64,000 bases of DNA from an uncultured Methanosarcinaceae archaeon (GTDB lineage Archaea; Halobacteriota; Methanosarcinia; Methanosarcinales; Methanosarcinaceae): NCBI GenBank assembly GCA_963727895.1, contig CAVSHT010000009.1:32001-96000 (forward strand), in the 5' to 3' direction. Numbering within the stretch: position 1 is the first letter of the stretch; every line of letters begins with the position of its first letter. Below the pieces are notes generated by a model. The model saw only the letters and a program-made list of their open reading frames with translations, searched no databases and was not told the DNA's origin. Of this stretch, positions 55,005 through 57,768 are shown one piece after another. The translations under genes were made by a program, and so were the position numbers.

Positions 55005-55825
55005 ATAATTCAAATTAGGAGAATTAGAGAAAACAGGGCATAGAAATTAGAACGTATTCTCTATGTCCTAAAATATAATTTATATTTAGGGTCAAAAAAT
55101 ATAAGCAATGAAAATCTTCTTTTCTTATACTCAAGATATTAGTTATCAAGCCTTTTTTATAGCCACTTTTTCCTTTTTTCAAACCTATAATAAAATACAA
55201 TAAGCAAAAAAGACTGAATCTTTGTATTCATATTCTATAAAAATTAGGCATTGTTACTTAACTATAGCTAGTTCTTTATTTCTGTATTTCATCAATAGAA
55301 TAACCGAGTACTTTAGCATTTCAATACTTTTCGTATAACACTTTGTCTTTCTTCTCAACCTTGCCAAAAAGTGCCTCAATATGCTGTTATATCCTTCAAC
55401 AGTATACGTTTCTGCTTTTGATTGAGTATGACTCTTTTCTGGAAGAAACTCTGCATATGCTCTCCAGTGATCGGTCATCACTTCTCCGATCTCTTTTTTC
55501 TTCAATTTTTCCATAGTCGTTTTCCAGTTTCCGTTCCTCTGCTATCAAAAGAGCAGTTGATGAACTTTTTCCCAACTCTATCAACAGCAATCCAGATCCA
55601 GCAATATTTTTTTTGTTACCGATGTAAGTGTACATTTCATCCATTTCAACAATAGATATCTCATTTTCACTTTTTAGGTCCTCTAACTCCTGACCAAATT
55701 TCTTTATCCATCTTTGGACAGAAACATGACTCACCCCTAAAACGCACATGCTTTTCTTCGAATAACAAGCACAACTAATGAAAGTACTCTCCGTTCTTTT
55801 TTTTGACTATTAAGCCCTCATTACC

Positions 55826-55959
55826 TTGGGCAGTAAGGTTGTCTCGATTTTGGTTTTTCAAAACCGTCCTAAAACTAATCAGTGAATTGCCATCGAAGGC
55901 TCAAGTGTGACTTTGATCACGGATGCTAAATTGGCCTTTTAGGCAATTCCACTGCCCAA
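55826..55959 (+). ncRNA. Candidate bridge RNA core of the IS110 element
   Basis: Outer stem ttgggcagt/actgcccaa enclosing two stem-internal loop-stem arms whose loops match junction sequences. Confidence 0.6.
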
Positions 55960-55978
55960 ATAAATTTGGTGATCTAAT

Positions 55979-57223
55979 TTGATTGAAGTCATAAACAAAG
56001 CTTGTGGTTTAGACATTCACAAACTCTTTTTCATTGCTACAATTCTCAGTAGATCTGGTGAAAAACAACAGCAACGTTTCAACAGAGATGATGAAGGAAT
56101 TTTAGCCCTTAAAAATTGGGTAATATCAGAAAAATGTGATGTTGTTGCATGTGAATCAACCAGCGAATTTTAGGTTCCGATTCATGATTCATTGGTAAAG
56201 CATCTAACTGTGATAGTTGGAAATGCGCGAGATATGAAGGTATTTACCCATACAAAAACAGATAAGATTGACTCAGAAGTCATTGCACAACTTGCACTTA
56301 ATAATATGATTCAGCCATCAAGAGTTTTTCCAAAGGATCATATAGATTTTAGATCATATGTTCGACTTCGGTTAACACTTGTACAAAAAAGAACAGATTT
56401 AAAAAATAAAGCTCACTCAATTCTTGCATCTGAAATGCTACACCTGAATAATGTTCTGACAGACGTTTTTGGCAAGAATGACAGAATGATCTTATTAGGA
56501 ATCTCTTCAGGTAAGAGTGTTGATCAGATTATTGCAAGCCTCTCTCCAAATGTTCGGAAAAAAGCTGCTCAGATAAGAGAAATTCTTGATCGAGAAATTT
56601 CTCAAAGTGCTGCATTTAGACTTCAGATCTGTCTGATACTCATAAAAAGTCTTGATGATGAACTCGAAGCTTTAGAAACAGAAATTTTCAATTATGCTTC
56701 TCGAAATCATAAGCGAGAAATGGAGATTTTAATGTCAGTTCCAGGTATAGGGGAACTTGGTGCGGCAATTTTACTTGCTGAAATAGGCAACTTTAAGGAT
56801 TTTTCTTCTGGAAATAAGCTTGCTTCTTGGCTTGGTCTAGTTCCTAATGTGTATCAATCTGCAGATAAATACTATAACGGCAGAATCACAAAGAGGGGAT
56901 CAAAAGTAGCAAGGTGGATTCTGACACAGATTGCTCAAGCAGCAGCAAGAAAGAAGAATAGCAGGTTAAAAGAGTTTTTTAACAGAAAAAAGAAGTCGAT
57001 TGGAAATGCAAAAGCAATTATTGCCTTAGCAAGGAAAATTGCAACGATACTATGGCATCTTATTACAAACGATGAGATGGACGAAGATGAAACCGGATAT
57101 CAAAAGGGAGAAATCCAAAAGAGAAAGATTATTGAAACTGAGATTTTTTCGGTTGATGAACTGATTAAAATAATTAGTGAAATATTTACGATTATGGGGA
57201 AAAAGAATCAAGAGAGCACGTGA
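55979..57223 (+). CDS. IS110 DEDD recombinase with an in-frame TAG at 56171-56173
   Basis: GLDIHK, CESTS, KTDKID, SVPGIG, GLVP...QSA...ITKRGS, ALARK; the two track ORFs are in one frame. Confidence 0.9.
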
Positions 57224-57768
57224 GGATAATCTCCTCATGTACTTTCATGCTAAAATCTTCCTATTGAACGAAAGCCTAATCCTTCAAGGTAAAGTTGTAA
57301 AGCCTGTCTTTTTACAGAGGCGGAAAAAGCAGTTGATTTTAGCTTTACTGTATAGTTATATCCACAATCATGGCATTTGTAGCGTTGACGCCCACCAACT
57401 ATACCGTTCTTTTTGTGACTGGAACTATTGCATATGGGGCAGTTCATGAAGAAATATATGTTATAAGCATATATATCTATTTTTGATTACCGATGCCAAA
57501 AATCATTGTAAAAATTTATAAATCATATATTGGAATACTAAAATAGTTTGTGGAGAATGTAAGATTGAAAAGAAGCTTTATAGAAACATCTCTTGATGGT
57601 TATTTAATTGAAATTACGTTTGAGTTTTTAATTCTAGTAGATATTTTCGTAAATGTTGAGAATTCCACAAATCCAATTTTTAGAGATAAATAACCAGAAA
57701 AATTGAAAAATTGAAGTGAACTGAAAATAAAAACAGAATCTATGTAGGGAAAGAAAAGATAGAAAGTG

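Follow-up and report, generated by a model that had tools for sequence, protein, structure and literature searches.

Bridge RNAs and seek RNAs of IS110-family recombinases were described in 2024 from bacterial elements (PMC11208160, PMC11187229), and the target mining of Siddiquee et al. was confined to bacteria (PMC11187229). In IS621, the 5' side of arm 2 holds the main donor guide of 8–9 nucleotides (nt) (PMC11208160). ISEc21 has the guide order of IS621, and in IS1111 seekRNAs the order is reversed (PMC11187229); a 2026 review tabulates guide order as a family trait, with the bottom-strand match first in IS110 and the top-strand match first in IS1111. Protein lengths are given as 315–450 amino acids (aa) for IS110 and 330–350 aa for IS1111 (PMC11187229), and multi-loop RNA architectures have been reported for the IS1111 group. 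A 2026 preprint (10.64898/2026.10.21.760802) presents 86 bridge-RNA models that cover 32,190 loci, many of the models unlike IS621, and its section 8 contains nothing on guide order or archaea. Here, an insertion sequence of the IS110 family is described from a 64,000-nt stretch of DNA (the window) of an uncultured Methanosarcinaceae archaeon (GenBank assembly GCA_963727895.1, contig CAVSHT010000009.1, positions 32,001 to 96,000). The leader of this element (55826–55959) is very probably a bridge RNA with arms binding target and donor, as judged from a conserved structure, stem covariation, three guide–DNA covariations, an insertion-site preference and exact boundaries. The mechanism is a known one, and what is new is an archaeal variant in which the guide sides are exchanged. 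A literature search, with figures and several supplements outside its scope, turned up neither an archaeal bridge RNA nor this combination of features.

Like IS621 and ISEc21, the element has a short right end and a long left end, which encodes the RNA and precedes the DEDD/Ser recombinase. The RNA likewise has a target loop followed by a donor loop, both of them internal, with guides pairing to opposite strands on either side of a short shared core, and the ends carry a short subterminal repeat without target duplication. Unlike in both bacterial elements, the guide sides are swapped in both loops, in agreement with an earlier note on the window, made from its letters alone, which had proposed a guide order reversed relative to IS621. 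Furthermore, the two arms are joined by the outer stem in a three-way junction, and a right-donor guide was not found. IS621 has a CT core, whereas the shared crossover bases are AAA here, and its protein of 326 aa is only distantly related to the one of ~414 aa at this locus; the enzymes of known structure, IS621 and ISCro4, align with it through the C-terminal domain alone (E = 3.6e-9 and 6.6e-8). With the IS1111 seekRNAs (ISEc11, ISKpn4, ISPa11) the element shares a top-strand complement lying 5' of the bottom-strand complement. In contrast to this group, where the RNA follows the transposase gene, subterminal repeats measure 7–17 bp and transposases 330–350 aa, the RNA is found upstream, the repeat measures 4 bp and the protein ~414 aa. 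By the upstream non-coding region, the 4-bp repeat and the length of ~414 aa (criteria from PMC11187229), the element would be classed as IS110-type. Both major guides lie on the 3' sides of the loops, which is an IS1111-type order in an IS110-type layout. The ISfinder elements ISMac14, ISMba7, ISMba20 and ISMma5 also have Methanosarcina hosts and belong to the same IS110 protein family, but form a different protein cluster, whose N-terminal stretch, compared by eye only, differs at most positions. In the protein tables of both 2024 papers, the ISMac14 cluster is the only one from Methanosarcina (PMC11208160, PMC11187229).

Analysis of the leader was based on a protein-guided scan of species genomes, which yielded 54 loci with 34–94% identity, mostly from Methanosarcina and additionally from Methanospirillum, Methanoculleus and Methanoperedens, with leaders that align across the whole two-arm structure. 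The 136-nt core folds better than its shuffled versions (z = -3.47, 0 of 200 shuffles equal), whereas a wider span of 248 nt does no better than shuffles (z = -0.69), so that the fold signal appears only for the core. Over 18 distinct homologue sequences, 89.9% of cells in six helices are paired and compensatory changes occur in 18 of 37 pairs, a result matched by none of 500 shuffles; pairing falls to 51% or less once the helix partners are slid. Compensatory changes were found in six of the nine pairs of the outer stem P1, in three of five pairs of helix 2, the basal stem of arm 1 (98.9% paired; GGUU/AACC to GGCC/GGCC), and in four of six pairs of helix 3, the apical stem. Helices 4, 5 and 6 in arm 2 are 91%, 88% and 100% paired, and helix 6 changes from GUGA/UCAC to GCGA/UCGC, GUGG/CCAC and GCGU/ACGC among homologues. 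G-U pairs, present for example in 17 of 18 sequences at the closing pair of helix 2, would read A-C on the opposite strand, and thus the coding strand is the RNA strand. RNAalifold recovers helices 1, 2, 3 and 6 unaided.

The stems listed in the earlier note were all present as given, namely ttgggcagt (55826–55834)/actgcccaa (55951–55959), ggtttt/aaaacc (55852–57/55860–65) and, in arm 2, gaattgcc/ggcaattc, aaggc/gcctt and gtga/tcac, together with the loop string gatttt at 55846, and its expectation of stem conservation and covariation was borne out. The internal loop it had drawn in arm 1 exists, but the basal stem ggttg (55837–41)/taatc (55876–80) had been missed. This stem covaries and makes arm 1 a closed internal loop.

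The relation of the loops to DNA was assessed with element ends located by guide-independent rules, after which guides were shuffled among families in 20,000 trials. The 3' segment of arm 1 agreed with the last 7 flank bases at 6.32 of 7 positions, compared with 4.23 ± 0.17 after shuffling (34 families, 0 of 20,000 as high). Perfect 8/8 matches to the left flank were found for unrelated sequences in L096, L098, L099, L103, L105, L107 and L108 (CAAACAAA, CAGTAAAA, TAAACAAA, TAACCAAA, TGCATAAA, TCCGTAAA and CTAAAAAA), and in a mutual-information scan RNA positions 55869–55871 track flank positions -6 to -4. For the 5' segment of arm 1, the reverse complement agreed with core and right flank at 6.68 of 10 positions versus 5.86 after shuffling (21 families, 2 of 20,000), and a right-flank match of 9/10 was seen by eye in L033, L034 and L086. 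Both halves of the target covary with the loop of arm 1, the first loop. The 3' segment of arm 2 agreed with the last 5 element bases at 4.17 of 5 positions, against 3.13 in shuffles (23 families, 0 of 20,000). Among homologues, the right end and the arm 2 guide change together as CTAAA, TTAAA, CCAAA, GGAAAA, AGAAAA, AGGAAG, AGGAAA and GGGAAA. Left target and right end both finish in AAA in nearly all families. The proposal of a bridge RNA whose loops covary with their targets therefore came out positive, in copies and homologues, for three of the four expected guides. The two identities on which it had been founded are exact: cctaaaa (55868–55874) equals the left flank at 55736–55742, and atgctaaa (55923–55930) equals 57247–57254.

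Two subfamilies within a single genome, G140, carry different guides. Ten copies with the guides GAUAAAA / (AAAA)TAAGTA lie after [G/A]ATAAAA-like flanks, with T at -5 in 10/10, and six copies with AGAAAAA / (AAA)TAAAAGA lie after GAAAAA-like flanks, with A at -5 in 6/6. The right flanks agree with the predictions TAAG.. and TAAAAGA. These subfamilies represent natural reprogramming inside one genome. In the genome of the window itself (own genome), a subfamily B with 79–85% identity has the loop ACUAAAA and the flank ACTAAAA in both of two copies. Its donor guide is AUGUCAAA, and a solitary right end reads CATGTCAAA. Among its loci, C4:52540-54050 is a chimera with a left part of subfamily B and a standard right end.

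An alternative would be that the leader is an ordinary structured 5' untranslated region for translation control or stability, that the protein picks the target and that the matches are AT-rich coincidence. Indeed, the window by itself offers only short matches of A/T-rich sequence, shuffled versions of the 248-nt span fold equally well, and a Shine-Dalgarno-like box (GGTGAT at 55968–55973) and the start codon follow close behind the structure. However, dozens of homologues show loops that change in step with flanks and ends, with stem pairing preserved, and the two subfamilies of G140 occupy different sites that each match their own loops. An untranslated region as the whole explanation is thus hardly credible.

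The own genome comprises 3.67 Mb on 19 contigs and is 84% complete. Its 23 readable left ends and 24 right ends, together with 180 IS1 sites that are empty, were used to set the boundaries of the element. The 1512-bp stretch matches 28 places there, 21 of which cover at least 98% of the element with 94–100% identity. CCTAAAA immediately precedes the element at 18 of the 23 left ends and CTAAAA at 21; the right ends read ...CATGCTAAA in 23 of 24 cases, and the next base is t (12), a (8) or c (4). In the target CCTAAAA(A)TC suggested earlier, the right flank is thus variable, with AAAATC preferred and not the sole form. Counting the A's in empty versus filled sites gave a simple insertion right after CCCCTAAAA without duplication and a donor junction of CATGCTAAA joined to CGCACATG with three A's, which places the shared crossover within the A-run. 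The termini read CGCACATG... on the left and ...CATGCTAAA on the right and show neither terminal inverted repeats nor target duplication. Their geometry is CATG plus 5 nt on the right and 4 nt plus CATG on the left, with the 4-bp repeat at both ends. The left-end arrangement of 4 nt plus CATG is kept in homologues, and in L057 the subterminal repeats are CATA/TATG instead of CATG. The first four bases vary freely among homologues (CGCA, CACA, CGAA, CGGA, CGTA, CACC, CCCC and others). The non-coding left end extends over 236 bp upstream of the recombinase frame and the right end over 31 bp past the stop codon.

The insertion interrupts an IS1-family transposase gene, recognised by a PF03400 (DDE_Tnp_IS1) match on 55254–55514 (E = 1e-10); uninterrupted IS1 copies stay in frame across the insertion site, as read by hand from the codons. 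In the own genome, 16 of 24 right flanks belong to this single abundant IS1-family element. At its 180 uninterrupted sites, the bases after CCCCTAAAA are CTC (114 sites), ATC (50), TC (5) or others (11), and the empty-site variant CCCCTAAAA-ATCTT occurs nine times in the genome. Occupancy was 6/11 for AAAA-TC, 7/57 for AAAAA-TC and 3/117 for AAAA-CTC, so the first variant differs from the two others with Fisher p = 0.004 and 6e-6, where occupied IS1 copies are not necessarily all independent insertion events. The variant that is best fitted to the 5' guide of arm 1, AAAA-TC, is the one most often occupied. For a genome of 3.67 Mb, the load of this IS1-family element is unusually heavy, with at least 180 uninterrupted copies in addition to those that are occupied. 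The earlier note had contained neither this target inside an abundant IS1-family element nor the IS1111-like order nor the TAG nonsense codon described below.

Taken as a mechanism, the RNA folds as a three-way junction, with a target-binding internal loop in arm 1 and a donor-binding one in arm 2. The DEDD/Ser recombinase would exchange strands inside the shared A-run, and the element would land immediately after CCTAAAA without duplication. By analogy to IS621, the leader would be transcribed and bound by the recombinase, and a circular intermediate and the same chemistry would be expected. The coordinates of all features are listed in Table 1.

Table 1. Features of the IS110-family element and its surroundings (positions in the window, unless a contig of the own genome is named)
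Feature	Position	Strand	Remarks
Whole IS110-family element	55743..57254	+	1512 bp, inserted without target duplication
Left end	55743..55750	+	4 variable bases CGCA, then subterminal repeat CATG (55747-55750)
T-run and TATA-like box (ctattaag, 55807-55814)	55792..55814	+	possible internal archaeal promoter, inferred only
Bridge RNA core (probable)	55826..55959	+	outer stem P1 (55826-34/55951-59) around two arms
Arm 1, predicted target-binding loop	55837..55880	+	basal stem 55837-41/55876-80, apical hairpin 55852-57/55860-65
Arm 1, 5' side UCUCGAUUUU	55842..55851	+	guide complementary to top strand, core and right target (AAAATCG...)
Arm 1, 3' side CCUAAAA	55868..55874	+	guide equals top strand of left target and core, pairs with bottom strand
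Arm 2, predicted donor-binding loop	55884..55949	+	stems 55884-91/55942-49, 55896-900/55934-38, 55907-10/55917-20
Arm 2, 5' side UCAAGU	55901..55906	+	no match to left end of element
Arm 2, 3' side AUGCUAAA	55923..55930	+	guide equals last 8 element bases (left donor and core)
Recombinase frame (DEDD_Tnp_IS110 and Transposase_20)	55979..57223	+	broken by TAG at 56171-56173
Right end	57246..57254	+	subterminal repeat CATG (57246-49), then CTAAA
Left target and core CCTAAAA	55736..55742	+	in flanking IS1-family gene
Right target ATCTTCC	57255..57261	+	in IS1-family gene
Interrupted IS1-family transposase gene, downstream part	55254..55742	-	upstream part at 57255-57447
Subfamily B loci, own genome	C4:93227-94166, C4:52540-54050, C5:174457, C6:25257-25505		

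Several observations speak against the leader being a bridge RNA. Since the permutation test was run on related families, the shuffle counts overstate independence and are not true probabilities. Single loci deviate: L039 has the guide CTAAA, yet its element ends in TCAAA, the left flank of L102 matches at only 4/8 positions, and the right flanks of L103 and L105 misfit. Instead of helices 4 and 5, RNAalifold unaided draws local hairpins, and an Rfam 15 scan of 55400–57600 with E up to 10 revealed no matching family (two sub-threshold chance matches only, both outside the leader). Contigs of relatives from four RNA libraries cover the whole element including the leader; they give neither strand nor ends, and DNA carry-over is possible. 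The right-donor guide for the left end of the element, which is expected from IS621, was not found in 38 representatives. Finally, the copies are degenerate: a 20-bp tandem duplication at 56417, shared by 16 of the 19 copies of full length, shifts their reading frame, and the single frame without interruption (L002:1604-2776; C4:393022-394533; 390 aa) has an Asp>Tyr exchange in KTDKID.

As to the left end, a mutual-information comparison of its positions 1–10 with every RNA column gave a clade signal only, and the 5' side of arm 2 showed no identity or complementarity with these positions beyond that signal. This side of the loop is just 6 nt long and lacks a U-run able to read the core. The doubt already expressed about a second donor guide was thus justified, as no RNA column tracks the first four element bases, and the donor loop appears to read one end only. 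Pairings found by eye for the left end (UGUG with CACA, a discontinuous pairing, and UCAAAU = TGAAAT) were dropped because the registers were inconsistent between clades.

It could also be argued that the swap of guide sides is only apparent and that the RNA is an IS621-like bridge RNA whose sites are read in opposite polarity relative to the transposase gene, so that it would merely depend on the end at which the gene sits. Flipped coordinates make arm 1 canonical, with a 10-nt 5' side pairing up to 9–10 nt and a 7–8-nt 3' side, and the repeat CATG is palindromic, so that protein contacts could be symmetric. In the flipped frame, however, one would expect arm 2 to carry its main donor guide (8–9 nt in IS621) on the 5' side, which here has just 6 nt and no match. 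All donor information lies on the 3' side of arm 2, a mirrored asymmetry that a plain flip leaves unexplained, and the same order has been reported for IS1111 seekRNAs. A mere change of polarity is therefore regarded as rather unlikely, and a true exchange of guide sides is preferred.

The recombinase gene is readily recognised. Its sister copy L002 contains both Pfam IS110 domains (E = 2.5e-17 and 3.6e-26), and PF01548 matches the window copy with one TAG inside. Apart from this TAG at codon 65, the window frame is open for 416 codons and would otherwise be the only full-length frame in the assembly. The catalytic motifs GLDIHK, ACESTS, KTDKID and GLVPNVYQS of the window copy align across homologues; the residues D, E, D, D and the Ser of G-x-x-P-x-x-x-x-S were assigned by the motif definitions of PMC11208158 and PMC11187229. 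At the position of the TAG, most copies and all homologues encode Trp (TGG; ESTS-D/Y-F-W-VPI), and the change TGG>TAG is common to three copies. Since TAG replaces a conserved Trp, it represents a nonsense mutation and the window copy is defective. Conserved amber codons have been recorded in transposase families of Methanosarcina (PMC2933860); a conserved pyrrolysine site was ruled out here by the TGG of most copies and all homologues. Some read-through of TAG in a pyrrolysine-decoding host is conceivable.

In copy C5:290075-291645 the 20-bp repeat mentioned above has grown to four units, and further copies carry 1–2-bp deletions. It seems that a defective derivative spread, presumably moved in trans. 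In the L002 frame, the substituted residue is the first Asp of KTDKID and the stop comes ~24 codons early; IS621 loses activity once the corresponding Asp is mutated (PMC11208158). The own assembly has 24 PF01548 matches; all are members of this family, and a long stop-free frame is present in just one. Because of the nonsense codon, the shared duplication and the defects of L002, the recombinase family is judged from its sequences to be decayed in the own genome, where no copy in the assembly looks intact. The window copy, with RNA gene and ends intact, could be mobile only with an enzyme provided in trans. Intact frames of 414–416 codons exist in related genomes (L031, L032, L084, L086), and the genomes of G140 and L032 have frames open for 416 codons.

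This raises the question of whether element and RNA are relics in the own genome that record past activity only, which concerns present activity and not the identity of the RNA. The window nonsense codon, the duplication in 16 of 19 copies and the deletions in others, the exchanged DEDD residue and early stop of the sole uninterrupted frame, and the single long stop-free frame among the 24 Pfam matches would all fit a relic. Against this, the copies are 94–100% alike with conserved ends and RNA genes, which indicates recent spread, an intact copy may be missing from an assembly that is 84% complete, and a host that decodes pyrrolysine might read through the TAG. The evidence on relic status is evenly balanced, and the reading of the leader as a bridge RNA is kept either way.

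A junction of right end and left end was searched for in the own assembly and none was found, the sole relaxed match being a chance one in coding sequence. In another genome, the right end ...TTTCATGCTAAA of L104 directly abuts a left end CGGACACG... upstream of the L104 leader. This head-to-tail junction could be a circle junction that became fixed, or else an insertion that is in tandem or self-targeted, and its bearing on a circular intermediate is suggestive only. In this context, some subfamilies have CTAAA-type targets that look like right ends. An inverted repeat, GAGGA-TAATC-TCCTC at 57223–57237, overlaps the last base of the stop codon and is conserved among homologues as GAGGAAGATATCCTC; its role may be that of a terminator or of an end-binding element.

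Upstream of the RNA, a block TTTTTTGACTATTAAG is conserved in homologues of the Methanosarcina clade and ends ~12 bases upstream of the outer stem (55826). Contigs of relatives in two RNA libraries link 55739 to 57252 and skip exactly 1512 bases. The 24 RNA-library runs contain only 6–10% of sampled words. Lacking strand and ends, RNA-library contigs were rejected as evidence of a discrete small RNA.

A covariance model (R1) built from the 18 homologues matched 29 of 151 sampled Methanosarcinales genomes and 9 of 12 other genomes of the genus. With filters off, R1 did not match the distant bacterial and haloarchaeal relatives on a Caballeronia plasmid, in ISBth13 and on a Halorubrum plasmid. 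A strong R1 match in L078, ~1.3 kb from the protein match, was set aside, as it probably belongs to a neighbouring element. In two sister-genus genomes (L100:1404-1629 and L101), an insertion of ~90 nt is present in the apical hairpin of arm 1 and the remaining RNA is intact. Elements with the same RNA and a protein 54–84% identical were also found on short contigs (L035, L056, L057, L063) binned as Oricola, Deltaproteobacteria and Cloacimonadota; archaeal contigs that were mis-binned are more likely here than transfer.

A further step would be to regard the family as a third layout of RNA-guided IS110 recombination in Methanosarcinales and Methanomicrobiales, with an upstream RNA, IS1111 order, a three-way junction, an A-run core, a single donor guide and an unguided left end. 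This proposal is tentative and, on balance, somewhat doubtful. If true, guide order would not be tied to the position of the RNA gene, and the family could mark the step where the junction crossed the RNA gene as the IS110 and IS1111 layouts diverged. The novelty is limited, as large surveys already report many bridge-RNA shapes departing from IS621. With the leader as a bridge RNA, which we consider very probable, the mechanism would operate in methanogens, guide order would be separable from the position of the RNA gene, and donor recognition may require fewer guides than in IS621. The compact recombinases (~414 aa) of mesophilic archaea, with their readable target rules, would be candidate genetic tools for Methanosarcina.

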